Of a DNA stretch of 64,000 bases, positions 13,540 through 60,551 are shown piece by piece. Positions within the stretch are counted from its first letter, which is position 1. Each line of letters starts with the position of its first letter. The stretch spans positions 2,845 through 66,844 of the forward strand of contig JAYWCB010000010.1 in assembly GCA_043780835.1 (NCBI GenBank). Direction: 5' to 3'. The stretch is from Minisyncoccota bacterium (GTDB lineage Bacteria; Patescibacteriota; Minisyncoccia; Phycocordibacterales; UBA2100). Both the position numbers and the translations under genes were made by a program. Below the pieces are notes generated by a model. It made no database searches. It saw nothing but the letters and a program-made list of their open reading frames with translations, and was not told the origin of the DNA.

Positions 13540-13638
13540 GACATACAGTATGCCAATCTATGAGCAATTCATCAACATATCCACATGTGTATACGTTATG
13601 TGCACAATACCTATTAGCGGTCCTATAGGATTGTTAAT

Positions 13639-14196
13639 ATGTCGAGTCAAATGGAGCAAAAACTTGTAAGAAAGTTGCGACGGACTAAAATGCAGGACGC
13701 TATACTCTCCTCACTCAAAATCGCCGGCATTTTAACCATCGCAATCGCCGCGCCAAATTTGGTGCAATTGTTAAAAAGACAGCTGACTAATCGCTCGATT
13801 CAAGGCGCATCTGAGCGACTTGCACAAAAAGGATTCATTGCATGGCAACATATAGACGGAAAAAGATTTATGCAGCTGACCGCCAAAGGAGAAGCGTATA
13901 TAAACGCAAGAACCATGTCGATCGCAAAGCCAAAACACTGGGACGGTAAATGGCGAATCGTCATATTTGATATTGCTGAGCCTCGAAGGAGGCACCGTAC
14001 ACAGTTGCGTAGAACGCTCATCGCGCTTGGTTTCAAACGGCTCCAAGATAGCGTGTGGGTATTCCCCTATGACTGCGAGGAGCTCATTACCCTTTTGAAA
14101 ACGGAGTATGGCCTTGGCAAAGAAGTTTTGTATATCATCGCGGATTCAATCGAGAGAGATTGGGAAATTATAGATCATTTTAAACTGAGGGATTAA
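13639..14196 (+). CDS. PaaX-like winged-helix regulator
   Basis: WDGKWRIVIFDIAEPRRRHRTQLRRTLIALGFKRLQDSVWVFP resembles the PaaX C-terminal signature. Confidence 0.45.
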   Translation: MSSQMEQKLVRKLRRTKMQDAILSSLKIAGILTIAIAAPNLVQLLKRQLTNRSIQGASERLAQKGFIAWQHIDGKRFMQLTAKGEAYINARTMSIAKPKHWDGKWRIVIFDIAEPRRRHRTQLRRTLIALGFKRLQDSVWVFPYDCEELITLLKTEYGLGKEVLYIIADSIERDWEIIDHFKLRD

Positions 14197-14295
14197 TTGC
14201 AGATTAGTGGTCCTATAGGAGCGTTAATGTGTACTTATGAATTGAAAGGTGTATGGAGACTGAGAGGGCTGTGAAGAAAAAGGACGGTCCTTTTT

Positions 14296-26248: not shown

Positions 26249-26279
26249 ATTTTTGGATGTACGGAAGCACCCCACGTGT

Positions 26280-26343
26280 CGGCTTGCTACTGCAAGCCGC
26301 ACGCAGGCCCCATCTCGCGATCCCATTCGCCGTCGCGAATGGG
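26280..26343. repeat. copy of the dispersed hairpin element family (H2 hairpin, loop TACT, then H1 hairpin cccattcgc-CGTC-gcgaatggg)
   Basis: Same GC-CGTC-GC hairpin and flanks (cgat…ctccgattcc) as the elements at 57231, 57403 and 59875. Confidence 0.55.
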
Positions 26344-26395
26344 CCCCACGCTCCGATTCCTTCTGTCTTCATTCAAACACTTTGTGTTTGCGAAA

Positions 26396-30679: not shown

Positions 30680-30925
30680 TCAATATGTATTTTCATCTCT
30701 GCGCCGGACGTCGATAATAACGTTCTGACCGCCGAGTCTGCGAAAAATAACACGGACTTTCCCGACGCGCACTCGGTATTCGTCTTTTCTACCTTTTAAT
30801 TTCTTACAATCCAGGTCCATTACCTCTCCTGAGATGATGTCACGCATAATAGGGATGAGGCCCTCACGCTCCTTTCTTGAAACTTTCAGGAGAAATTTAC
30901 TTACCTTGTCCATGAAGTCTTTCAA
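30680..30925 (-). CDS. RelE/ParE family type II toxin
   Basis: …DEYRVRVGKVRVIFRRLGGQNVIIDVRRRDENTY. Overlaps the upstream antitoxin gene by about 29 nt. Confidence 0.6.
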   Translation of the reverse strand: MKDFMDKVSKFLLKVSRKEREGLIPIMRDIISGEVMDLDCKKLKGRKDEYRVRVGKVRVIFRRLGGQNVIIDVRRRDENTY

Positions 30926-31181
30926 GAGAGGCTAGAACTTCTTCGGCGGGGACCCCACCTTTGCGGATCTTGGTGAAATCAATGACTGTTTTCCAGCCTG
31001 GTCCATCAATCTCCTCGAGATCATACTCAACCTCGCTCGGAGGTACGATCGAAAACACCGGCTTTGAGTGTCGGAAGACGGTAAATTTCTTGCCCTTTCC
31101 TACAGCTTTGATGTAGGTATCTATGTTGTCACGCAACTCCTTGAGACCAATTATTGAATCCGTTGCTATGTATTTAGCCAT
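30897..31181 (-). CDS. Phd/YefM family antitoxin
   Basis: …GLKELRDNIDTYIKAVGKGKKFTVFRHSKPVFSIVPP…. Confidence 0.55.
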   Translation of the reverse strand: MAKYIATDSIIGLKELRDNIDTYIKAVGKGKKFTVFRHSKPVFSIVPPSEVEYDLEEIDGPGWKTVIDFTKIRKGGVPAEEVLASLERLHGQGK

Positions 31182-34196: not shown

Positions 34197-35315
34197 TCAC
34201 GGAGCGTTCCTTTGAGTGATGGTTTGATCAAGTATTTTCCTAACTAAATGATGGGTGTTCCCATGCCGTAGAAGCCCCAGATATGATTGCATTATCGGAT
34301 CATTTTCTGCCACCTCGCGTGTATTTTTGCACGCACGACACTTAGTAGACCTTCGAAGCACGCGATGACGCGGAAAGTGCACCCATCCGAGAAAGTCCAC
34401 GCCGCTCGCGAATGTTTTTATAAATACCTTATCTGGATGCAACTCGAGCTTGAGTTTTTCATGCAGAAATGCCGCGATCTTCGGCAACAATGAGTCAAGG
34501 CGCGGCCTTGATGCAGAGAGTATTACGAAGTCGTCCGCGTAGCGAATGTAGTGCTTCGCTTTGAGCGTCTGCTTTACGTATTGATCGAACTCGTTCATGT
34601 AGATATTCACAAGCAGCTGACTCGTCAGATTACCGAGCGGCAATCCCTTTAAAGTGGAAGGTTTAGCCTTCCACTTTACTCCTCTGCTCATATCCCTATC
34701 TTCGCGCGGTCGCGTAGAAATAGGGATACCGGATCGGAAACTATGGACGACGTTTTTGATGAGCTCAACAGTGCGGATGTCGGGAATATACCCACCTACG
34801 ATGTCGAGAAGGATTGATTGATCGATGCTTGCGAAGAACTTTCGGATATCGCACTTGAGCACCCAACAGGTGCGGGTGTGATTTTTTGATACTTTGTATG
34901 CGAATTCCCGGAAACGATTCATCGCTTTGTGGGTTCCCTTTCCTTTTCTGCATGAATACGAATCTGCGATAAACGTGCGGTCGAAGAACGGGTAGAGTTT
35001 GCGATACAGCGCGTGGTGTAACAGTCGATCGCGTACGCTCGCCTTGTGAATGTCGCGGGGTTTGGGGTCGGATATCTTGAACGCCTCGTATCCGTCGTGA
35101 CGATACGTACCGTTCCTTAGATCGGTATGCAAGGCAAGAACATTACGCATTAGACTAGCTCGAAATTCCTGCACATCCTGCTTCTTTTGTTTTCCCCGCA
35201 CAAATTCTCTCCACGCCGCAAGAAGATTTACAACCGAAATGATATCCTCGTATGAGTGGCTGAAAACTCTCCGAGACTGGACCCCCCCCAACGGCTTTTG
35301 CCTGTTATTGAGCAT
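34197..35315 (-). CDS. DGR reverse transcriptase
   Basis: NLLAAWREFVRGKQKK…LRNGTYRHDGYEAFKISDPKPRDIH…VRDRLLHHAL (bRT-like N-terminus). Motif 4 LPLGNLTSQLLVNIYM (the SQ variant typical of DGR RTs). RYADDFVIL active site. Confidence 0.8.
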   Translation of the reverse strand: MLNNRQKPLGGVQSRRVFSHSYEDIISVVNLLAAWREFVRGKQKKQDVQEFRASLMRNVLALHTDLRNGTYRHDGYEAFKISDPKPRDIHKASVRDRLLHHALYRKLYPFFDRTFIADSYSCRKGKGTHKAMNRFREFAYKVSKNHTRTCWVLKCDIRKFFASIDQSILLDIVGGYIPDIRTVELIKNVVHSFRSGIPISTRPREDRDMSRGVKWKAKPSTLKGLPLGNLTSQLLVNIYMNEFDQYVKQTLKAKHYIRYADDFVILSASRPRLDSLLPKIAAFLHEKLKLELHPDKVFIKTFASGVDFLGWVHFPRHRVLRRSTKCRACKNTREVAENDPIMQSYLGLLRHGNTHHLVRKILDQTITQRNAP

Positions 35316-35678
35316 GCAAAGAAATTGTACATCCTCTGGCTTCCCATACGGCGCAACATGGCACGGGATGAGCGTTTTGGAATCGGCAAACGAATCGACG
35401 AACTTTTGTTATCTGCACTCGAACAATTGCGAGAGGCTTCGTATAGCTCGGGAAGCGGAAAAATAACACTCCTCGGCAAAATTTTGCAAAGCACCGATCT
35501 GCTTCGCTTTTTCTTCCAATTGGCGTGGGAAGGTCAAATTCTCCAACAAAGACAGTACATTCTCCTTGCGGAAAATACGGAGAGTCTCGGCAAAATGGTC
35601 GGCGGATGGCGCAAAGGATTGATTGCAAAAACCCCGCCCCAAGAAAATAAATCCGTGAGCGGGGAAAGAAAAGAGTAG
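35256..35678 (+). CDS. avd: Avd-like accessory variability determinant (four-helix-bundle protein)
   Basis: Helical ORF. LWLPIRRNMARDERFGIGKRIDELLLSALEQL is similar to the Bordetella phage BPP-1 Avd segment YLYPIAQSIPRKHGVAREMFLKCLLGQVEL. Lies on the strand opposite the RT and overlaps its annotated start by about 60 nt; start may instead be at Met35 (35358). Confidence 0.5.
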   Translation: MAENSPRLDPPQRLLPVIEHAKKLYILWLPIRRNMARDERFGIGKRIDELLLSALEQLREASYSSGSGKITLLGKILQSTDLLRFFFQLAWEGQILQQRQYILLAENTESLGKMVGGWRKGLIAKTPPQENKSVSGERKE

Positions 35679-35788
35679 CGAGACAGGACCTGGTTGCCGT
35701 CGTTCCACCTATTCGGGTTCTCGATCGAGTTGGCCTCTACATTCCAGCCACCGTTGTCGGAGTTCCAGTTGGCGTTGACCGCCCAGAG
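35677..35788 (-). repeat. DGR template repeat (TR), 112 bp, AAC/AAT-rich in sense orientation
   Basis: Identical to the VR except at 16 positions, all A in the minus-strand (sense) TR. Encodes …NANWNSDNGGWNVEANSIENPNRWNDGNQVLSR. Confidence 0.85.
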
Positions 35789-36035
35789 CCATATTGTGCA
35801 TTGAGTCACCTATGCCACTGCCCTTTGACTACTCTCAGAGCTGTATCGTATGTGGGACCTCAAAGTCCTCCAACGCAATGCACCGATTCTTAATCTTTTT
35901 TAAGAGCTTCTGCTCGCGCGCTTCCAAGAGATCTCTCCGTTGAAATTCTGACGATGCAAATAACCCGAGGCGCTGCGTGAAATTTGTTACACGTCACACC
36001 AGAGCACTCCTCGCTATGTAGTATACAAAAGAAAA

Positions 36036-36071
36036 GACCCTCTGAAACTGTTTTTAAAGTTTCAGAGGGTC
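36036..36071 (-). terminator. perfect 14-bp hairpin (gaccctctgaaact / agtttcagagggtc) about 50 nt downstream of the VR; terminator and/or DGR cruciform element
   Basis: Direct reading. Confidence 0.55.
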
Positions 36072-36122
36072 AGAAAAGCTGAGGGTTTAAAGTAAAACCC
36101 CAAAGAGAACAAGTGAGAAGAA

Positions 36123-36722
36123 TCAGCGAGACAGGACCTGGTCGCCGCCGCCCCACCTACGCGGGTCCTCGATCGAGTTGGCCTCTACACCCCAGCCACC
36201 GCCGTCGGAGCCCCAGCGGGCGTAGACCGCCCAGAGGATGCCGTTCACGTCGCGGATATACACAATGTTGGCATACCCGCTGGTGAGGAGCGGTCCGACT
36301 TCGCCCTTGCCCTGCTTCGAGAGCAGCGCAAAGAACTGACCGAGCTTGATCTCGCACTTTTCGGCGAGTACCGTAATGATCGGAGTATCGAGCGAGTGTT
36401 CCAGGAGCTTGTGCGCCTTGATGTCGGAGGCATCGCAGATACCCTCAAAAAGTCCGAGGAAGTTCGTGCTGAAGTTGTGGCCGATCCATGCAATACGCAC
36501 CGCAGCCTTCTTTGTGTCGACCGTGAAGTAGTCGGCAGCCTTAAAACCTTCGACGCCGGCGACCGAGGTGGTCGTCACGAGTTCGAGGAGCTTCTTGGGC
36601 TCGCTCGGCTTAGCGACAACGACATGTAGATCTCCGGCGAGTAGACGCATGAATGCGTCTTCGCCCCCGATCTTGTTGATGCCCGCCTCAATCTGGCCAA
36701 GGGTGAGATTGCCATATTTCAT
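36123..36722 (-). CDS. DGR variable (target) protein, 199 aa, no signal peptide
   Basis: C-terminal 37 aa encoded by the VR (…WAVYARWGSDGGGWGVEANSIEDPRRWGGGDQVLSR*). Confidence 0.75.
   Translation of the reverse strand: MKYGNLTLGQIEAGINKIGGEDAFMRLLAGDLHVVVAKPSEPKKLLELVTTTSVAGVEGFKAADYFTVDTKKAAVRIAWIGHNFSTNFLGLFEGICDASDIKAHKLLEHSLDTPIITVLAEKCEIKLGQFFALLSKQGKGEVGPLLTSGYANIVYIRDVNGILWAVYARWGSDGGGWGVEANSIEDPRRWGGGDQVLSR
36125..36236 (-). repeat. DGR variable region (VR)
   Basis: 112-bp copy of the TR with all 16 differences at TR adenines. Confidence 0.85.
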
Positions 36723-40609: not shown

Positions 40610-42424
40610 TTAGTCTTCGCGCTCGTATAAGAGGTCGTCGGGCAGACGGAACAGCCCTTCATCGTTTCGCTTTTGTTCGATGAAATGAGAAATGAATCCC
40701 ACCGTACGTGGAATGATAAACAGTGCATTGAAAAATTCCGCGTCGAGCAGTTCGCCTATCTCCTGGTTGGAGTACCCGTCCTTTTCCTGCAAGAGATCGA
40801 GTACGAGTGCCGCCATGACGCCGTCAACATTTAAAATAAGATTACCGTTTTTTGCAGTCGTCACGGATTCAATGGCACGAGCAAAATCGTAGTGCGGATG
40901 TCGAGAAAGCAGTTCTGCAAATTCTGAGAGTGCTGCCACGCGCGGATCAGGAATACCGACCCGATATTTTCTATGACCGATCCCGGAGAGCAACTGCCCT
41001 GCCTTATTTTTTGCTTCCACATACGCGGCAGCGTCGGCGGCTGATGTCATGCCGTCGTGCCAACACCGTGCCGCATCGTTCACCGCGCCGCCAAAGCGCG
41101 GACCAACGGTCAGGAGTCCGGAGACCAGCGAAGAAACCATATCTTTCCCTGCGCGCGCGGTCACCATAGTGTTTACCGCGCCGGACACATGACCACCGTG
41201 ATCAATCAGAAGTTCAAATATATTTTCTACACATGCGGCTGTTTCTGCAGACACGGTGCGGCCGAGCAACGCCTTAAGAGCCGCAGCGGCAAATGCGTTT
41301 TCAGGCTGCTTCGTGAGCGTCCCACCCTTTACAAAAACCGGAACCGCATCGAGGTCGACTATTTTACGCGATGAAAGAATACTTGGTTTCCGTTCCATAA
41401 ACACCTTCGTATCAATGACCGTATCATGAATGAGTGGGAGCGAAATCTCGGCGAGCGCATGCAGAAAAAGAGGAAAGGTTTCCGGCGCGATCGCACCCGC
41501 ACTATTGAGCGCGTCACGTTTTGCACGCGCGCTTTCATCCTTTCTCGCAACAAGTGCCTTTGCATGCCCGAATTGCATTCGCTCATCAAATGCTTCGTCT
41601 ATGATTCCGGCAATGTAACAAATGATGGGTTTCGTGAGCTGTTTTGATTTCAGTAGTTCAACGATTTCATATTCGTCTGCGCCACCGAGTTCGCCAAAAT
41701 ACACAATCGCCTTTGTGGCGGGATCAGATTCTGCCAGTGCGAGAACCTGTGAAAGTGCCGTGACCGGAAACCGGTCGCCACCGATCGAGAGAGAAAACGA
41801 CACGCGCTTCCCTGCCTGCACTACGGCGCGAATCAGCTCATTGGTCATACCTCCGGATGTAGACACGACCGCAACAGATCCTTCGGTTGCAAGTTTCCCC
41901 GCTTCGATTTGTGCCACATCTGTACCGCCGATCGCACCAAGTTTTAAGTATTTTGGAACGAGTAATCCCACGCCGGATGATCCGGCGATAAGATAGTTCG
42001 CCCCAAATTTCGCAATGAGCTCGGTCGCGTGATTTTCAGGTACGTTTTCAGCAAAGAGATGTCCGCCGAGTGCATCAGGAAACGCAGAAAAGAAACCGAT
42101 TGTTGAGGCGAGGGTGCGACGTCCTGACAGGGCGTTGAGCATCCATTGCACGCGAGCATGCGATGCTTTCGGGACATGCGCATAGTCGCGATAGCATGGG
42201 ATCAGAATCTCTGATGTGCCGAAAAAGAATTTCTGAGCTTTTCGCGTGCCGGAAATGATCCCGATAATAGACGGACGAGATTTGCCTGAAAGCGCATCGA
42301 AATCAAGTATGGACTGCACAATTCCCGGATGATTTCCGACGACGAGAATCCCGTCTGCTCCACTTCGTATTCGTTCAATGAGCGTCATATTATTGAATGA
42401 AAACAATAGCTTCTTCCACTGCAC
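40610..42424 (-). CDS. aclA: ATP-citrate lyase large subunit-like (CoA-binding/CoA-ligase + citrate-synthase-like C-terminal domain)
   Basis: Succinyl-CoA-synthetase-alpha-like N-terminal half. C-terminal GIGHRKYRVGIPDPRV matches the citrate synthase/ACLY GIGHRVKS…NPDMRV motif. Confidence 0.6.
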   Translation of the reverse strand: MQWKKLLFSFNNMTLIERIRSGADGILVVGNHPGIVQSILDFDALSGKSRPSIIGIISGTRKAQKFFFGTSEILIPCYRDYAHVPKASHARVQWMLNALSGRRTLASTIGFFSAFPDALGGHLFAENVPENHATELIAKFGANYLIAGSSGVGLLVPKYLKLGAIGGTDVAQIEAGKLATEGSVAVVSTSGGMTNELIRAVVQAGKRVSFSLSIGGDRFPVTALSQVLALAESDPATKAIVYFGELGGADEYEIVELLKSKQLTKPIICYIAGIIDEAFDERMQFGHAKALVARKDESARAKRDALNSAGAIAPETFPLFLHALAEISLPLIHDTVIDTKVFMERKPSILSSRKIVDLDAVPVFVKGGTLTKQPENAFAAAALKALLGRTVSAETAACVENIFELLIDHGGHVSGAVNTMVTARAGKDMVSSLVSGLLTVGPRFGGAVNDAARCWHDGMTSAADAAAYVEAKNKAGQLLSGIGHRKYRVGIPDPRVAALSEFAELLSRHPHYDFARAIESVTTAKNGNLILNVDGVMAALVLDLLQEKDGYSNQEIGELLDAEFFNALFIIPRTVGFISHFIEQKRNDEGLFRLPDDLLYERED

Positions 42425-43538
42425 GCGTGATCACATCATCAGAGCCATGTACCGAGCCAAAAAGTCTCTCTTTTTCCAAAAAAGATTTCATAAGGGACAG
42501 ACCAGCCGCTTCATTAGGTCCGCCGCGTCGCACAAACACGCGAATTCCCTGTTCCCTTAATGGCGCTGCGACTTCCGAAAGCGCATCGATAATGCCCAGA
42601 AACGTCTTTTTTACGTCGGTGAAATTGGCAACGCCGCCGGCAATCACGAGTGCTTTTTTGGGCGCCTCAGATGCAAGGAGGAGCGAGAGGATTTCTTTTG
42701 CATATAAATACGTCTCCTCGCGCGTTGGTCCACCGCTGTATTCGCCGTAGTTGGCAAGGAGCGATCCCGCACCCTGCAATTGCACTTCATCGGCGATGAC
42801 GATGGATCCACCGCCGCCGGAGAGCAGGAAAAAGAGGGCGCCGTTCGGATTGATTACCGAGAGCTTCAGCGACGCGGGGGTTGTTGCGGCAAGAGCTTCA
42901 ACGCGACTTTCTGCCGGATGTTTTGCTTTTTGTTTGATGACATCGGAATCAGTCCACGAATCTCGCAGGAAAAATTCGCCCGCACTGTCGACGAGCGCCG
43001 CCGCATCGAGCAAAACTGCGGATCCATTTAAAACGACGAGCGGATTGATTTCGAGAAATGCAAAAAATTCTTTTTCGAACGCATCACCCACGCGCGCAAA
43101 AAACGCTTCCGGTATACCGGTCGACGATGCGATTGACGCCACGTCTTCTTTTTTTGTAAGCATGTATGTATGCACCGCTTCGGGATGCGCTTCGATATCG
43201 ACGCCTCCGTCTTTTGCGTGCAAAACGCGAATTCCGTCCCGCACACGCTCAAATGATATGTATTGATCGAGGGTCGCATCGTGATCCATGTATGGGTCGA
43301 GCAAGAATTGCGTGAATCCTTTTTCCTCCCACGCCGCTATCGCAGATTTAATTTCTGCGTCGCTTTTATCCACCACAAGAAGCCCCTGCTTGAAGCGCTT
43401 CTTGATCCCTTGATCCACCTTTGCGACCCACCGCCCCGCTGGAATAGAAATCGCTCCTGTGTGCAATTGCACACCGGTATACGAATCTCCGAGAAGGATT
43501 TTCTTCGCCTTATATTCGCTGAGCTTTACACGCGCCAT
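42390..43538 (-). CDS. aclB: ATP-citrate lyase small subunit-like (ATP-grasp, SucC-like)
   Basis: MARVKLSEYKAKKIL… SucC/AclB-type N-terminus. Overlaps aclA by 35 nt. Confidence 0.6.
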   Translation of the reverse strand: MARVKLSEYKAKKILLGDSYTGVQLHTGAISIPAGRWVAKVDQGIKKRFKQGLLVVDKSDAEIKSAIAAWEEKGFTQFLLDPYMDHDATLDQYISFERVRDGIRVLHAKDGGVDIEAHPEAVHTYMLTKKEDVASIASSTGIPEAFFARVGDAFEKEFFAFLEINPLVVLNGSAVLLDAAALVDSAGEFFLRDSWTDSDVIKQKAKHPAESRVEALAATTPASLKLSVINPNGALFFLLSGGGGSIVIADEVQLQGAGSLLANYGEYSGGPTREETYLYAKEILSLLLASEAPKKALVIAGGVANFTDVKKTFLGIIDALSEVAAPLREQGIRVFVRRGGPNEAAGLSLMKSFLEKERLFGSVHGSDDVITRAVEEAIVFIQ

Positions 43539-56373: not shown

Positions 56374-57087
56374 TTATCGGATGTCTTTATACTGTTCGTG
56401 GTACGGACGACCAAATAATACCGGCCACCAGAAATTGAGTATGTAGTTCATATTCGTGCGGAAATATCCCTCAGCTGCAAAGCGCCGCATCGACGTGATG
56501 ATGTAAAAATCCATTCTGAATACCGTCTTCCCCTGCGTATGCAATCGTTTTGCGAGCGTCATATCCTCTCCGTAAAATACAACGTCCGGATCAAAACCAC
56601 CGATCGCCTCCATCGCGCTTCGACGCACGATAAAATTTGCGCCGAATAGCATGTAACCGATTGCTCGATACATGAGCGGTGCGCTCGCCCACCATCCGAG
56701 ACTGAGCTGCAATCGCCAGAGCATGGACGGCGCATCGAAATATTTTGCCGGGCCACTCCACGAGACGCCGTTCGGATAGCGCGCAATAAGCCGCTCAGCA
56801 GTGCTGTACCACTGCGCAGGCAATCGACAGTCCGCGTCAATATATGCGACGAACTCACTGGTCGTTGCTTCTAGTCCTGCCTGCCGCGCTTTGGTGAGCC
56901 CTTTATCTGTGACCTGCACTATGCGTACGCGCGGATAGCGTCGTACAATTTCTGCAGTCTCATCGGTGGATGCGTTGTCTATGACGACGATTTCCTTGAA
57001 ACGTGCAGCGTGCGCAACCACCGAATCGAGGCACGGTCCGATGTACTTCGCCTCGTTATGAGCGGGAATTACCAGAGAAATTTCCAT
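56374..57087 (-). CDS. glycosyltransferase family 2
   Basis: SLVIPAHNEAKYI…IDNASTDET…YIDADC. Start taken at MEISLVIPAHNE. Confidence 0.8.
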   Translation of the reverse strand: MEISLVIPAHNEAKYIGPCLDSVVAHAARFKEIVVIDNASTDETAEIVRRYPRVRIVQVTDKGLTKARQAGLEATTSEFVAYIDADCRLPAQWYSTAERLIARYPNGVSWSGPAKYFDAPSMLWRLQLSLGWWASAPLMYRAIGYMLFGANFIVRRSAMEAIGGFDPDVVFYGEDMTLAKRLHTQGKTVFRMDFYIITSMRRFAAEGYFRTNMNYILNFWWPVLFGRPYHEQYKDIR

Positions 57088-57149
57088 ATTGGACGACGTA
57101 ACCTTCATAGTACACAACTACATACACCGATATTTCATTTTTCGCCAGT

Positions 57150-57547
57150 CTGGGCGGCTATAGATCAATGGGTGAAGCGCCCGCGTTTTTGAATTATTTT
57201 GGGCAGTAGGTCACGGTCAAGCGCTCGATCCTGCGCCGTCGCGCAGAATCTCCGCCTGACCACGCGCGGGCATCCCCGCGTACTCGCGGGGCCCCAGCCC
57301 TTGCTTTCGATTCCCTGTAGCCGTCCACAAAATAAAATTCATCAACGCTTCGCGTTTTTGAATTATTTTGGGCGGCTACAAGTGAATAGGCCAAGCGCTC
57401 GAAATGTTGCCGTCGCAACATTTCTCCGCTCGGCCCTGCTCACGTCGTCCCGCCTGCTGGCGGGTCCCGCGACGCTCGCTTTCGATTCCCGATAGCCTGC
57501 ACCAAAAAGCATATTACAGAAACGCTGCGCGTTTCTTCCATTGTTTT
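57150..57547. repeat. tandem array (about 2.5 units of about 175 bp) next to tRNA-His. Each unit carries a tRNA-His 3'-end copy (tgggcggctacag), hairpins H1 (GC-CGTC-GC) and H2, and an inverted copy of the tRNA T-arm/acceptor (ttcgattccctgtagccg)
   Basis: Direct reading. Direct repeats at 57152, 57201 (degenerate), 57369 and 57548. Covarying hairpin stems between units. Confidence 0.7.
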
Positions 57548-57622
57548 TGGGCGGCTACAGGGAATCGAACCCTGATCGAGAGCTCCACAAGCTCCAGTGT
57601 TAACCGTTACACCATAGTCGCC
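57548..57622 (-). tRNA. tRNA-His (anticodon GUG) with encoded G-1
   Basis: Cloverleaf folds with D-stem GTGT/ACAC, anticodon arm GGAGC-TTGTGGA-GCTCT, T-arm CAGGG-TTCGATT-CCCTG. Confidence 0.8.
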
Positions 57623-57681
57623 ATCTCCTCTAACAATTGATTTATAGCAGAATCAAGCCCGCAGCGCGAACGCGTATGCAC

Positions 57682-58779
57682 CTATCGTGTCTCCTGCAAA
57701 AGATTTATGACTGTATCGCGCACAACGGTAAAGTTGATCCGTCCAATAAACTGCCCTCGTTCAGTAAGCACGTTTACGCGCCATGATCCGGGTTCCGGGT
57801 TTTGTTTTTGAGAATACCCGCGGAAACCGCCATCGCGCCCGCCGCGTATTTCAAACCTGACATCGCCTCGTGTTTCCCATTGCCTCGTTCCCTTGTTATA
57901 AAACTGCCACTGATGGCGCAGGATCGTGGAAAGGCCTGATGGTGCAAATACAGCGGTGAATACATACGCATTATCACCGTCGTTGAGTGCGATGTGTGCG
58001 GGTATACCGAGATAGCGAACTCCAAACGATTTCATTTCCCCGCTCAACGTATATTCGTTTTCCGTTCGCTCTACGAGATGATAGACCCCTCCCTCTTTGA
58101 GCGCGAGTGGAAGTGGAGGAATAATATTGGAGAAATACAGCACATTGAAGAGCATAAAGAGGGCGGCGAGTGAGCGCGTAGTCGTGGACTGAGCGGCAGT
58201 GAACCGTTCCGGCGTGAGTGCACGCAACAGTCCGGTAAACAATCCGATAATAACAACGCTCGAAGCGCCCGCAAGCAAAAACATGGCGGGACCGATCGTT
58301 TTAAATATGAGCGGCAAAAAGAATATAAAGAAAGAAAACAGCGTGGTGAAGTACATCGATATTTGAAATGGAAGTTTTTGATACAGCATGCGAAACCGCT
58401 CATTTCCGATAAGCATGAATGCAAGCGCGAATACAAAGACCCACGACACCGCGACACCTGCGCTGCGACTGTATAAACTCACATACCCGCTAAATAATGC
58501 GCCAAAGAAAAATTGCACCGCAACTGGAAGAAATGGCGACACGGTAAGCAAAAATCTCTGTTCAACACGACCCGACTCTATCAGATTGAGTAATACAATC
58601 GCGATACCGACGAGTACAAGATACGAAAGCATCAACATATTTCCGAATGGTGCGTCCACGCGCTTCAGCACGATGAAATTATCAATCAAAAAGCCCGCAA
58701 TGAGTGAGAGCGGAGAGATGTAACGCTCATACCATTGAATGAGCTCTTCTATATTCTGAGGAAGATACTGACGGATCAT
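57682..58779 (-). CDS. membrane protein with several N-terminal TM helices and a C-terminal extracytoplasmic domain
   Basis: Hydrophobicity pattern only. Confidence 0.45.
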   Translation of the reverse strand: MIRQYLPQNIEELIQWYERYISPLSLIAGFLIDNFIVLKRVDAPFGNMLMLSYLVLVGIAIVLLNLIESGRVEQRFLLTVSPFLPVAVQFFFGALFSGYVSLYSRSAGVAVSWVFVFALAFMLIGNERFRMLYQKLPFQISMYFTTLFSFFIFFLPLIFKTIGPAMFLLAGASSVVIIGLFTGLLRALTPERFTAAQSTTTRSLAALFMLFNVLYFSNIIPPLPLALKEGGVYHLVERTENEYTLSGEMKSFGVRYLGIPAHIALNDGDNAYVFTAVFAPSGLSTILRHQWQFYNKGTRQWETRGDVRFEIRGGRDGGFRGYSQKQNPEPGSWRVNVLTERGQFIGRINFTVVRDTVINLLQETR

Positions 58780-58844
58780 GGATATAGAAATAATAGCAAA
58801 TCCACCGGTCCCCCAGGTATTTGAATACGAGTCGTTTCAATAAC

Positions 58845-58875
58845 AAAAAGCCGGATATCGATCCGGCTTTTTGTT
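58845..58875. terminator. bidirectional intrinsic terminator (aaaaagccggatatcgatccggctttttgtt)
   Basis: Downstream of tRNA-Leu. Confidence 0.65.
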
Positions 58876-58897
58876 ATGGACTTTTTTCCAATTTTTG

Positions 58898-58982
58898 TGC
58901 CCGGGACAGGACTCGAACCTGCACGCCCATAACAGGCTTTACCACCTCAAGGTAAAATGTCTACCAATTTCAACACCCGGGC
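58898..58982 (-). tRNA. tRNA-Leu (anticodon GAG), class II with long variable arm
   Basis: Acceptor GCCCGGG/CCCGGGC, anticodon arm TTACC-TTGAGGT-GGTAA, T-arm GCAGG-TTCGAGT-CCTGT. Confidence 0.8.
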
Positions 58983-59036
58983 ATCACTGCTTCGCGATTA
59001 TACGCATCGCTTTCACTATTATCAATCTGATGTACA

Positions 59037-59070
59037 CAAAAGGCCCCGAGTGGGGCCTTTTGTGTTTGTT
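59037..59070 (-). terminator. intrinsic terminator after rplS (aaaaggccccgagtggggcctttt…)
   Basis: Hairpin with flanking tracts. Confidence 0.6.
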
Positions 59071-59072
59071 TT

Positions 59073-59528
59073 TTATGCCTGTTCGATTGCGGCTGACTCT
59101 TCGGCAGAGGGAGTTGCAAGTTCAATCGGCGCCTGGTCTTCTTCAAGACCCGTAACAACCGGTGCCGCCGACTTATTGACGAGGACGGTGCGGCGAAGCA
59201 TACGACGAGCCTCGCGAGCAACTTTGTCGCGAAGGAAATAGAGCTTGGCGCGGCGCATAGTTGCGCGCTTTACGATCTCAATTTTGTCGATCATCGGAGA
59301 ATAGAGCGGGAAAATCTTCTCGACACCTACACCACTCGATACACGGCGAACCGTAAAAGTACCGCCTGCCTCCGTGCCGTGCTTGCGCGCGAGTACGAGA
59401 CCCTCGAATGTCTGGATGCGGGTTTTGCCCTTTTCCTCGATTTTCTGGTGCACACGAACAGTGTCTCCGGAGCGGAGGTCTAATGTCTTGCGTGCTTGCA
59501 CATCTACCGGTGAAATTGTGAACGCCAT
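59073..59528 (-). CDS. rplS: 50S ribosomal protein L19 with C-terminal extension
   Basis: …[34 protein letters not shown]…[31 protein letters not shown]…AKLYFLR. Start taken at MAFTISP. Confidence 0.85.
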
Positions 59529-59730
59529 AACGTCGCGGCACTGTAACATGCAGGACCTGCAAGGGCAAATTACTATAGAAAAGGACCGGAAGCGTGTGCT
59601 CACGGCCCTTTGTAGTGCGGCTCAGCCGCGAAGATCAATGGCCGCCGTGGCCGTCTTCGTCGTTGGCAACATTCATCTCGAATTAAACACAAGAAGACCG
59701 ACAGCAGCTGTCGGTCTTCTTGTGTTTCTG

Positions 59731-59803
59731 TGGGCGATACAGGACTCGAACCTGTGACCTTCGCTGTGTAAAAGCGTTGCTCTACCAACTGAGCTAATCG
59801 CCC
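59731..59803 (-). tRNA. tRNA-Val (anticodon UAC)
   Basis: GGGCGATTAGCTCAGTTGGTAGAGC…TTTACAC…GGTTCGAGTCCTGTATCGCCCA. Confidence 0.75.
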
Positions 59804-59839
59804 GTTCCGCATCACCTTATCGTATTTATGTCTTTACAC

Positions 59840-60075
59840 CAATTGCCCTCGGTTGGAAACGCCCGCGACTAAACGATTGCCGTCGCAATCGCTTGTCTGG
59901 GCACCGCCTCACTGTCTCGCAAGCTTGCGAGACATCGTTCCGGCGTTCGATTCCAACACGCACAGCGCGCAGGCGCTGTGCTCTCGGTCAAAACATACGT
60001 TTTGCCCTTCGGTATCTGGGAAACCCACGGTTTTCCCAAGCCTTCCTCCACGGGAAACTTCCGTTTCCCGCCCCC
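59840..60075 (-). ncRNA. highly structured spacer between tRNA-Val and tRNA-Arg. Hairpins: H1 gattgc-CGTC-gcaatc; tgtctcgcaag/cttgcgagaca; cacagcgc-gcag-gcgctgtg; cgggaaac-ttcc-gtttcccg. Also an inverted T-arm-like segment ggcgttcgattccaac. Possible co-transcribed ncRNA or repeat-element copy
   Basis: Direct reading of multiple perfect stems; no protein-coding potential. Confidence 0.35.
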
Positions 60076-60115
60076 TTCCCTAACCGAGGACACCTCGTTC
60101 GCTTCGCTCACTCTG

Positions 60116-60187
60116 TGCCCCCGGTTGGAATCGAACCAACATAGACGGCTTAGAAGTCCGCTGCACTATCCATTGTGCTACAAGGGC
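60116..60187 (-). tRNA. tRNA-Arg (anticodon UCU)
   Basis: Acceptor GCCCTTG/CGGGGGC (two G-U pairs), D-stem GCAC/GTGC, anticodon loop CTTCTAA, T-arm GTTGG-TTCGATT-CCAAC. Confidence 0.7.
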
Positions 60188-60224
60188 CGAAGTTGAATCG
60201 TATCCGTCTGTTGCAATACGTCAA

Positions 60225-60551
60225 TTACTTTGTAGGGTCGGTCACTTGAGGCGTCGTCGTTTTGCTGAGTTCAAAATTCGCCTTTCGCTCCGAAAACTTT
60301 GCAAGCGCACTTTCAAGTTGCGTACGATCGATCGCCGTTTTCTGTTGCGTGCTCGCGTCGATGGTTGTCGCAGACATAGTCGACATGACCGCCGAAAACT
60401 CCCATATACCGAAGAAAATTACGAGGCCCGCAGCAATGATTGCACCCAAGAGAACCGTTCGCCAATACGCCTCCGCAATTGGCCTGAGATTTTCCGGCTC
60501 ATGCCGAGCTTCATAAAGCTCTTTGAAAGAATCATGCTGTGCATCTTTCAT
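60225..60551 (-). CDS. small membrane protein downstream of pilO
   Basis: Single TM. Start taken at MKDAQHD. Confidence 0.35.
   Translation of the reverse strand: MKDAQHDSFKELYEARHEPENLRPIAEAYWRTVLLGAIIAAGLVIFFGIWEFSAVMSTMSATTIDASTQQKTAIDRTQLESALAKFSERKANFELSKTTTPQVTDPTK

Follow-up and report, generated by a model that had tools for sequence, protein, structure and literature searches.

A family of covarying three-way-junction modules with tRNA-specific arms in the trailers of tRNA and tmRNA genes of Paceibacteria

We analysed a stretch of 64,000 nucleotides from the genome of a Minisyncoccota bacterium (contig JAYWCB010000010.1; the whole stretch is hereafter named the window), in which a small hairpin with a CGTC loop recurs. 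This hairpin belongs to a structured module, and such modules form a large, uncatalogued family in the 3' trailers of tRNA and transfer-messenger RNA (tmRNA) genes of Paceibacteria. Each module folds as a covarying three-way junction, closed by two arms that are specific to the tRNA behind which it lies. We lean slightly towards the view that the CGTC hairpin is helix P3 of a trailer RNA that is transcribed together with the tRNA and excised as a small RNA, its arms having been made by template switching. The rplS gene, coding for protein L19, places the window among the Kaiserbacteria/Paceibacteria, in the candidate phyla radiation (CPR).

A first-pass annotation had reported at least four copies of the hairpin with a constant closing pair. 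Four perfect CGTC-loop hairpins are indeed found at these places, and the closing G-C/C-G pair is constant (Table 1). The window has 55 perfect tetraloop hairpins with stems of 6 bp or more. CGTC is the most frequent of their loops, with four occurrences, all of them intergenic and on the same strand; in 100 dinucleotide shuffles, CGTC hairpins numbered 0.21 on average and never more than 2. The 8-mer GCCGTCGC is mildly enriched in the window (9 sites against 4.6 expected). Its flanks are complementary at exactly the four named copies and form no pair at all at the 5 remaining sites, so that a chance recurrence with non-complementary flanks does not describe the four hairpins. The second hairpin type announced with them is also present, with loops TACT (at 26288 and 57281), TGCT (57455) and AGCT (59922). 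These loops had been read on the + strand, which was the wrong one: the folded strand is the - strand, where they read GACG and AGUA, AGCA or AGCU.

The tRNA genes of the window, four in number and found by ARAGORN and Rfam (His, Leu, Val and Arg), are all on this - strand. Read on the tRNA strand, each CGTC hairpin is one arm of a unit of ~130-140 nt folding as a three-way junction. The hairpin is thus real, but it is only part of a larger module, whose closing helix and junction had been overlooked. The general order is tRNA, spacer hairpin, 5' arm, a hairpin with an ANYA tetraloop (P2), a long hairpin with a C-GRCG-G tetraloop (P3) and 3' arm. The 5' arm is an inverted copy of tRNA positions ~54-70, the 3' arm repeats the tRNA in direct orientation between T-loop C56 and the discriminator, and the two pair as the closing helix (P1) of the junction. 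Both internal hairpins contain tandem G.A internal loops. At least four types of payload were found in this same frame: subtypes I and II, subtype III, in which the two hairpins are swapped, and a different payload named core X. A stable spacer hairpin was present in all 34 first-copy elements inspected.

Behind tRNA-His, whose 3' end is the template for the arms, the window carries an array of ~2.2 units, made of modules B and A and a stub, the latter matching 57369-57401 as a direct repeat with 76% identity. The closing helix of module B pairs ..GGCUAUCGGGAAUCGAA with ..CUUGUAGCCGCCCA, to be compared with ..UUCGAUUCCCUGUAGCCGCCC in tRNA-His; the 3' strand of P1 terminates with this ..CUUGUAGCCGCCCA, a copy of the tRNA-His 3' end. 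The spacer between tRNA-Arg and tRNA-Val is 311 nt long and contains two modules, core X and module C, each with its own Arg-derived arms. The interval 59840-60075 of this spacer, first described as a single element, is structured as claimed, but it is made of module C plus most of core X, a different module. In module C, GUUGGAAUCGAAC pairs with UUUCCAACCGAGGGCA (compare ..UUCGAUUCCAACCGGGGGCA in tRNA-Arg). In core X, which was also found at loci L003, L026, L045, L130 and L182, the 5' arm GUGUCCUCGGUUAGGGAA is antisense to the tRNA-Arg 3' end and the 3' arm is CCCAGAUACCGAAGGGCA; the interior has hairpins at 60050-60071 and 60016-60039, and the conserved string GUGGAGGAAGGCUUGGGAAAACCGUGGGUUUCCCAG. 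One hairpin of core X covaries, and its invariant string GUGGAGGAAGGNUUGGGAAAACCGUGGGUUUCCCAG includes a Shine-Dalgarno-like GGAGGA. The fourth CGTC copy lies in module D, an orphan with no tRNA nearby, placed between the rpsR terminator and the terminator of a convergent gene. Two covariance models were used for searches, R1 and R2, the latter built from seven subtype-III copies with no window sequence among them. Since R2, built without module D, scores it as its top match in the window, all four named copies belong to one superfamily.

Table 1. Hairpins, tRNA genes and modules in the window, with their positions.
Feature	Position	Strand	Details
CGTC hairpin 1	26322-26343		+ strand reads cccattcgcCGTCgcgaatggg; stem 9 bp
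CGTC hairpin 2	57231-57246		+ strand reads ctgcgcCGTCgcgcag; stem 6 bp
CGTC hairpin 3	57401-57424		+ strand reads gaaatgttgcCGTCgcaacatttc; stem 10 bp
CGTC hairpin 4	59874-59891		+ strand reads cgattgcCGTCgcaatcg; stem 7 bp
Module D (subtype III, hairpin order swapped)	26255..26360	-	R2 23 bits, E=1.6e-4
Module D, first hairpin	26316-26350	-	loop GACG 26331-26334
Module D, second hairpin	26267-26311	-	loop AGUA 26288-26291
tRNA-His(GTG)	57549..57621	-	ARAGORN; Rfam tRNA 56.8 bits; 3' end ..TTCGATTCCCTGTAGCCGCCC, CCA not encoded
Spacer hairpin between tRNA-His and module B	57518..57536	-	
Module B (subtype I)	57366..57507	-	R1 133.7 bits; fold -78.4 kcal/mol; arm match
Module B, P1	57485-57507 (5' strand); 57366-57387 (3' strand)	-	5' strand antisense to tRNA-His 3' end
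Module B, P2	57438-57479	-	loop AGCA 57455-57458
Module B, P3	57388-57436	-	loop GACG 57411-57414
Module A (subtype I, second tandem copy)	57194..57335	-	R1 133.2 bits
Module A, P1	57310-57335 (5' strand); 57194-57214 (3' strand)	-	3' strand degenerate
Module A, P2	57264-57304	-	loop AGUA 57281-57284
Module A, P3	57215-57261	-	loop GACG 57237-57240
Stub of third His unit	57151..57183	-	last 33 nt only, ..GCGCUUCACCCAUUGAUCUAUAGCCGCCCA
tRNA-Arg(TCT)	60115..60187	-	ARAGORN; Rfam; 3' end is template for arms of core X and module C
Module core X	59985..60110	-	seen at 6 loci; different payload, same frame
Module C (subtype II)	59845..59966	-	R1 25.6 bits, E=1.1e-5; R2 15.5 bits
Module C, P1, 5' strand	59949-59966	-	GUGUUGGAAUCGAAC, antisense to Arg T-loop and T-stem
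Module C, P1, 3' strand	59845-59860	-	UUUCCAACCGAGGGCA
Module C, P2	59905-59945	-	loop AGCU 59922-59925
Module C, P3	59861-59902	-	loop GACG 59881-59884
tRNA-Val(TAC)	59730..59803	-	downstream partner of tRNA-Arg

The link between the element and tRNA genes, already noticed at first sight, is borne out by the arms. Compared with the other tRNAs of the same locus, the antisense of its own tRNA was the best match for the 5' arm in 35 out of 40 cases, and the own tRNA was the best match for the 3' arm in 33 out of 40; many of these matches were exact over 19 nt. The direct copy begins at T-loop C56 (CGAGUCC, CGAUUCC or CAAAUCC) and runs to the discriminator plus 0 to 2 nt, and the inverted copy extends from ~T54 to N70. 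The pieces resembling ttcgattcc that had been seen near the hairpins are therefore present, not as loose fragments of T-arms but as inverted and direct copies of the neighbouring tRNA 3' end. Some direct repeats reach into the trailer (29 nt at L005 Val, 24 nt at L069 Arg, 17 nt at L010 and 54 nt at L005 His), so that the duplication must be an event at the DNA level; copying of a mature tRNA was rejected on this ground, and because no more than ~3 of 13 clean cases have a CCA after the 3' arm. One long palindrome runs from the tRNA 3' end through the spacer hairpin and its A and T tracts into the 5' arm. In a census independent of the core, the 420 nt downstream of each tRNA were compared with its own 3' end; exact inverted copies of 10 nt or more turned up for 48 of 243 tRNAs, and in the upstream control for 1 of 235. 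How ~19 nt of a tRNA gene came to be copied twice, in opposite orientations, around a foreign payload is a puzzle of mechanism.

The family was then delimited in related genomes, using 80 syntenic loci as the comparison set (718 kb for the covariance-model searches). A scan of these loci for the GACG hairpin yielded 11 clear relatives, or 12 with the weaker one at L028, located 100-200 nt 3' of a tRNA gene (270 nt in L028) and on the same strand as the tRNA. Several false positives of the junction-motif regular expression (L046, L047, L050 and L038b) were dropped after alignment. R1 and R2 gave 55 and 50 matches respectively, which merged into 63 distinct elements present in 40 of the 80 loci. 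Most of them (49) begin at most 110 nt behind a same-strand tRNA; the others are second tandem copies (6), elements cut by locus ends (2) and orphans (6). In the family at large, the element nearly always lies 25-60 nt 3' of a tRNA or tmRNA on its own strand.

Metagenomes were scanned with subtype-I junction motifs, giving 113 stretches, of which 80 loci with 84 pattern matches were fetched. More than half of the matches (46) lie behind a tRNA, at a median distance of 111 nt, and at least 19 anticodon types are represented; ~10 of the 84 are chance matches inside GC-rich coding DNA. Several apparent exceptions lie behind tmRNA or behind tRNAs split by group I introns. Subtype-I-like modules were found 3' of the tmRNA genes of L156 (7044-7561, - strand), L142 and L159/L163, and here the tmRNA 3' end, CGATTCCCACCACCTCCACCA, is reproduced without mismatch in the 3' arm. 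Viral contigs gave no match to the subtype-I pattern; seven matches to a subtype-III 18-mer were recorded there, none of which fits model R1, and they were attributed to chance. On the related metagenome contigs we also observed group I introns (among the features listed, L139 3408-3660 and 7574-7769, and L138 332-449), one of them inside a tRNA gene that itself precedes a module, and a LOOT RNA on one contig. At L160, the module (oriented position 1479-1525) has no adjacent tRNA, and the C-terminus of an IS3/rve-type transposase-like open reading frame (ORF), recognised by eye (..TPVEYRNHLLARGG*), ends just upstream of the module spacer hairpin.

None of this corresponds to a catalogued RNA. 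Rfam 15 (4227 models, those of the known self-cleaving ribozymes included) returned only the four tRNAs at gathering threshold over the whole window, and left the modules unmatched at E<=10 in the 56.9-60.4 kb region. The tRNA covariance model and ARAGORN both reported the four true tRNAs and none of the modules. Searches of the literature retrieved no earlier description in Patescibacteria.

The modules are maintained as structures. When ten clean copies of subtype I were aligned, mean column identity was 72%, with many invariant junction bases, and RNAalifold proposed 34 pairs, 21 of which showed compensatory double changes. In an explicit count, 98.5% of the cells paired; none of 500 shuffles equalled the observed values, and slid controls reached 33-46%. 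An independent alignment of subtype III gave compensatory changes in 16 of 30 pairs. Selection on structure rather than on sequence, as proposed from the window alone, is thus upheld. Pairs of the G.U type largely exceeded A.C (22 against 2 for subtype I and 11 against 2 for subtype III), and G.U pairs were kept at fixed positions, one of them in 8 of the 10 copies of subtype I and a second in all 7 copies of subtype III. The fold was more stable in the tRNA sense for 39 of 41 elements, by 9.5 kcal/mol on average (p=6e-8), and true tRNAs showed an asymmetry of the same sign. Wobble and fold asymmetry fix the tRNA strand as the folded strand, and favour RNA rather than DNA as the folded molecule. 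A role at the DNA level remains compatible with these data, because folded single-stranded DNA tolerates G.T pairs as well.

Judging from sequence and architecture, the closest analogue of the modules is the RtT RNA of E. coli (RF00391), which has the same organisation and does not appear to be homologous. As a positive control, the tyrT/tyrV region (NC_000913.3 1286300-1288000) gave four RF00391 units at 133-137 bits. Each unit terminates in a 19-nt copy of tRNA-Tyr beginning in the T-loop, and also contains an inverted copy (GGGGAAGGAT) of the tRNA-Tyr 3' end, which pairs with the terminal direct copy. In the same way, the closing helix of the Rfam consensus, GgGaaGGAU/AUCCuuCcC, is made of two copies of the tRNA end, one inverted and one direct, with branched hairpins between them. 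To our knowledge, the inverted copy has not been an emphasised feature of RtT. Both RtT and the modules lie in a tRNA 3' trailer, on the tRNA strand, as tandem units with a fractional last unit, and such tandems are seen in the window behind tRNA-His (B, A and stub) and tRNA-Arg (X and C). Both have a ~19-nt copy of the tRNA 3' end starting inside the T-loop, which forms a closing helix with an inverted copy around branched hairpins, and both have GAGAA after the 5' arm. RF00391 was not found in the window at gathering threshold (45 bits), nor at E<=10 over 56900-60400, and R1 scored at most 5.7 bits on E. coli tyrT. Since the models do not cross-detect, the modules are of the same kind as RtT without being members of that family. 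RtT is restricted to one tRNA (Tyr) in enterobacteria and forms 178-bp repeats (rttR), whereas the modules occupy at least 19 tRNA types and tmRNA, carry at least four payloads, and have a spacer hairpin, GRCG and ANYA loops and no encoded CCA. Outside the modules, this architecture is known from RtT alone. The long-unexplained RtT repeats thereby gain a broad set of analogues, which opens their origin and function to comparative study.

By analogy with RtT, which is released from the tyrT transcript by cutting, we propose that a module would be transcribed together with its tRNA, fold independently and be excised from the precursor to give a stable small RNA. A protein or another RNA could make contact with it at the invariant loops, the G.A motifs and the G.U pairs; our best guess for function is a protein-binding small RNA freed during pre-tRNA processing. 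Transcription with the tRNA is suggested by the Arg-Val spacer, which is 1-4 nt long in seven relatives, implying a dicistronic precursor, and filled with modules in nine others, the window included. No terminator-like site was found on the - strand of the window between tRNA-Arg and tRNA-Val, nor between tRNA-His and module B, and the Arg-Val spacer is probably, as was suspected from the start, a co-transcribed non-coding RNA. No T run comes after the GACG or the ANYA hairpins, which therefore do not qualify as intrinsic terminators; terminator-like signals appear only sometimes, and only in the separate spacer hairpins. A promoter-like site (TTGACC-16 nt-AATAAT, 10 of 12 matches) was noticed at 57193-57220 (- strand), over the conserved 3' junction of module A (CGAGCGCUUGACC) and its trailer, ~80 nt upstream of a glycosyltransferase gene (57117-56374).

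The origin of the arms is the least secure part of this proposal. They might have been generated during replication by template switching around palindromes: a first switch around the spacer palindrome would give the inverted copy, and a second one around the folded payload would give the direct copy. Template switching is documented to make RNA hairpins and perfect stems (PMC8794818). Once in place, direct repeats of the tRNA end would permit loss, tandem amplification and exchange of modules by recombination.

Retention of the modules in place is apparent at several loci. In L008 and L023, which have identical L19 proteins, the cores are 95% identical, and most differences among the Leu(GAG)-linked copies of eight genomes are compensatory. 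Two pairs of orphans, L008/L027 and L007/L009, each occupy one shared locus and are conserved there, again with compensatory changes; their arms are unrelated to any tRNA. CPR genomes are tiny and have little spare DNA, and yet half of the related loci (40 of 80) carry at least one module; compensatory upkeep in such reduced genomes speaks for a class of small RNAs, linked to tRNA expression, that has so far gone unrecognised. A comparison of L19 divergence with core divergence was uninformative, the range of L19 identities being too narrow.

Several observations weigh against a resident trailer RNA with arms made by template switching. First, loci L005 and L006 are nearly identical, with identical flanks, and differ in their Arg/Val spacer modules. 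Within L005, the core linked to Leu and the one linked to Val share 87% identity, which is as close as orthologues, and arms are often freshly perfect. Patchy occupancy, 87%-identical cores and fresh arms fit a selfish mobile element just as well. The consistent T54/C56 boundary is not an obvious prediction of random template switching, and the closing helix often extends into the A/T tracts of the trailer. Tolerance of G.T in folded single-stranded DNA makes the strand asymmetry, taken alone, compatible with a role at the DNA level. Finally, the spacer hairpin has a T-rich 3' side in ~14 of 34 first copies, and such hairpins may end transcription before the module.

The main rival is a mobile DNA element that is not autonomous, comparable to REPIN/RAYT, IS200/605, integron attC or CTX phage, and we hold it to be a possible, if rather doubtful, alternative. 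The folded single strand would be the substrate of a recombinase encoded elsewhere, with the loops as recognition sites, and any tRNA or tmRNA gene would offer a place for insertion, in its T-loop or at its 3' end. This would explain why occupancy is patchy among close relatives, why there are multiple and tandem copies per locus, why so many tRNA types (at least 19, plus tmRNA) are occupied with arms templated locally, why cores at different tRNAs of the same genome are as alike as orthologues, and why direct repeats sometimes take in trailer DNA; G.T wobbles would be tolerated by folded DNA, and REPINs evolve in a similar, hairpin-preserving way. If correct, it would mean a new kind of selfish element exploiting tRNA ends. 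What speaks against it is that an inverted plus a direct copy of 17-29 nt of the target fits no known transposition chemistry, that G.U pairs kept invariant at a given position are characteristic of RNA, and that orphan copies are conserved at orthologous sites. Moreover, copies within a genome are ~70-87% identical with structure kept by compensatory change, unlike the decaying copies of miniature inverted-repeat transposable elements, and the two motif patterns, for subtypes I and III, retrieved no copy of the element from viral contigs. Among the ~60 ORFs of the window, which covers 64 kb only, no transposase, integrase, Y1 HUH protein or other recombinase was found, and the only reverse transcriptase is that of a diversity-generating retroelement.

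The IS200/IS605- or integron-type recombination site suggested by the first-pass annotation does not agree with the details either, the wobble asymmetry and the invariant G.U pairs indicating an RNA on the tRNA strand. IS200/IS605 elements make no target duplication, insert 3' of a fixed tetra- or pentanucleotide and have subterminal hairpins at both ends, whereas the modules are flanked by 17-54-nt direct repeats of tRNA end and trailer, and their hairpins are internal to a three-way junction. Integron attC sites have conserved R''/R' boxes (RYYYAAC...GTTRRRY) at the foot of the folded site and lie in cassette arrays beside an IntI gene. Such boxes have no counterpart in the arms of the modules, which lack invariant columns and follow the local tRNA, and there are neither cassette ORFs nor an integrase in the window. 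The modules share some features with repetitive extragenic palindromic (REP) sequences and REPINs: both are short extragenic hairpin elements in many diverged copies, often beside terminators; both have a brief conserved sequence signature, and in both the stems are maintained through compensatory substitutions. REPINs differ in being simple inverted REP pairs, with no tie to tRNA ends, no target-derived arms and no long direct repeats; they also co-occur with a gene for a RAYT transposase, a relative of IS200/IS605, and none was seen with the modules in the 64 kb searched.

We judge it unlikely, a degree more so than a mobile element, that the frame itself (inverted tRNA end, payload, direct tRNA end) reflects an unrecognised mechanism of propagation, by which small structured RNA/DNA cassettes would place copies of themselves 3' of any tRNA or tmRNA gene. 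The arms would then be templated on the target by reverse transcription or by programmed template switching at the palindromic TCGA of the T-loop. If this were true, the same process would have created RtT in E. coli, and payloads I-III and X could be protein-binding or catalytic RNAs carried in a common vehicle.

Scars of integrative elements (prophages or integrative conjugative elements) were also considered: a tyrosine integrase would have crossed over in the T-loop, leaving the repeat as the attL/attR identity block after deletion of the cargo. The repeat from T-loop to 3' end does resemble the attP/attB identity blocks of T-loop-targeting integrases, whose sublocation classes Williams is said to have described in 2002. 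Attachment-site repeats at tRNA ends and target duplications of tRNA-targeting casposons share with the modules a direct duplication of 14-25 nt of the tRNA 3' end, starting from the T-loop or near the 3' end, but they enclose kilobases of cargo with an integrase or casposase, are specific for a single tRNA, and have neither an inverted copy nor a conserved RNA-like core. In the modules, the interior is 110-190 nt long, without ORF, and has a conserved covarying structure rather than that of a random remnant; the same core lies behind at least 19 tRNAs, whereas an integrase has one attB; the inverted arm is left unexplained and no integrase is nearby. This reading is already largely refuted, and we give it very little credence. 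Equally improbable is a neutral by-product, in which palindromes extended by template switching around tRNA terminators would leave functionless hairpin-rich DNA: the single long palindrome that runs from tRNA 3' end to 5' arm and the documented making of perfect stems by template switching (PMC8794818) agree with it, but it accounts neither for invariant loops and junction bases common to hundreds of loci and many tRNA types, nor for compensatory changes and a strand-specific wobble bias.

The closing helix is reminiscent of tRNA-like domains (that of tmRNA, mascRNA, viral tRNA-like structures and minihelices), since it corresponds to an acceptor stem stacked on a T stem. The modules differ by having no T-loop, no analogue of the D-loop and no free NCCA end; because the helix often continues into trailer A/T tracts, there is no free tRNA-like acceptor end. 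Four other candidates were rejected. The GA/GAG internal loop, judged by eye, does not fit the register of a K-turn with its 3-nt bulge; the bulged A that an MS2-type operator has two pairs below its loop is missing from the ANYA hairpin; a hammerhead-like junction is contradicted by the absence of CUGANGA and by the negative Rfam search; and a remnant of a convergent antisense tRNA does not predict the T-loop and T-stem sequence found in the 3' arm.

Whatever their origin, the modules will mislead the annotation of tRNA flanks, the prediction of attachment sites and ORF calling in metagenome-assembled genomes.

Some other features of the window were recorded. The diversity-generating retroelement occupies 34197-36722, with an RVT_1 reverse transcriptase at 34197-35315 (- strand) and a bAvd-like ORF at 35256-35678. 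Its template and variable repeats are probably the two copies of a 112-nt direct repeat, 35677-35788 and 36125-36236 (86% identical), and the 3' end of ORF 36123-36722 (- strand) harbours the variable copy. A small ORF carrying a PaaX central/Cas2-like domain (13639-14196, + strand) is flanked by a 30-nt direct repeat (13613-13642 and 14203-14232, 87%). A Phd/YefM-type antitoxin-like ORF (30897-31181, - strand) scored 27.3 bits, slightly below the Pfam cut-off. Finally, a pair of adjacent ORFs with domains of the ATP-citrate-lyase type was found at 40610-43538 (- strand), the first with Citrate_bind and ATP-grasp domains and the second with CoA-ligase and a citrate-synthase C-terminal domain; such domains are unusual in a reduced CPR genome.

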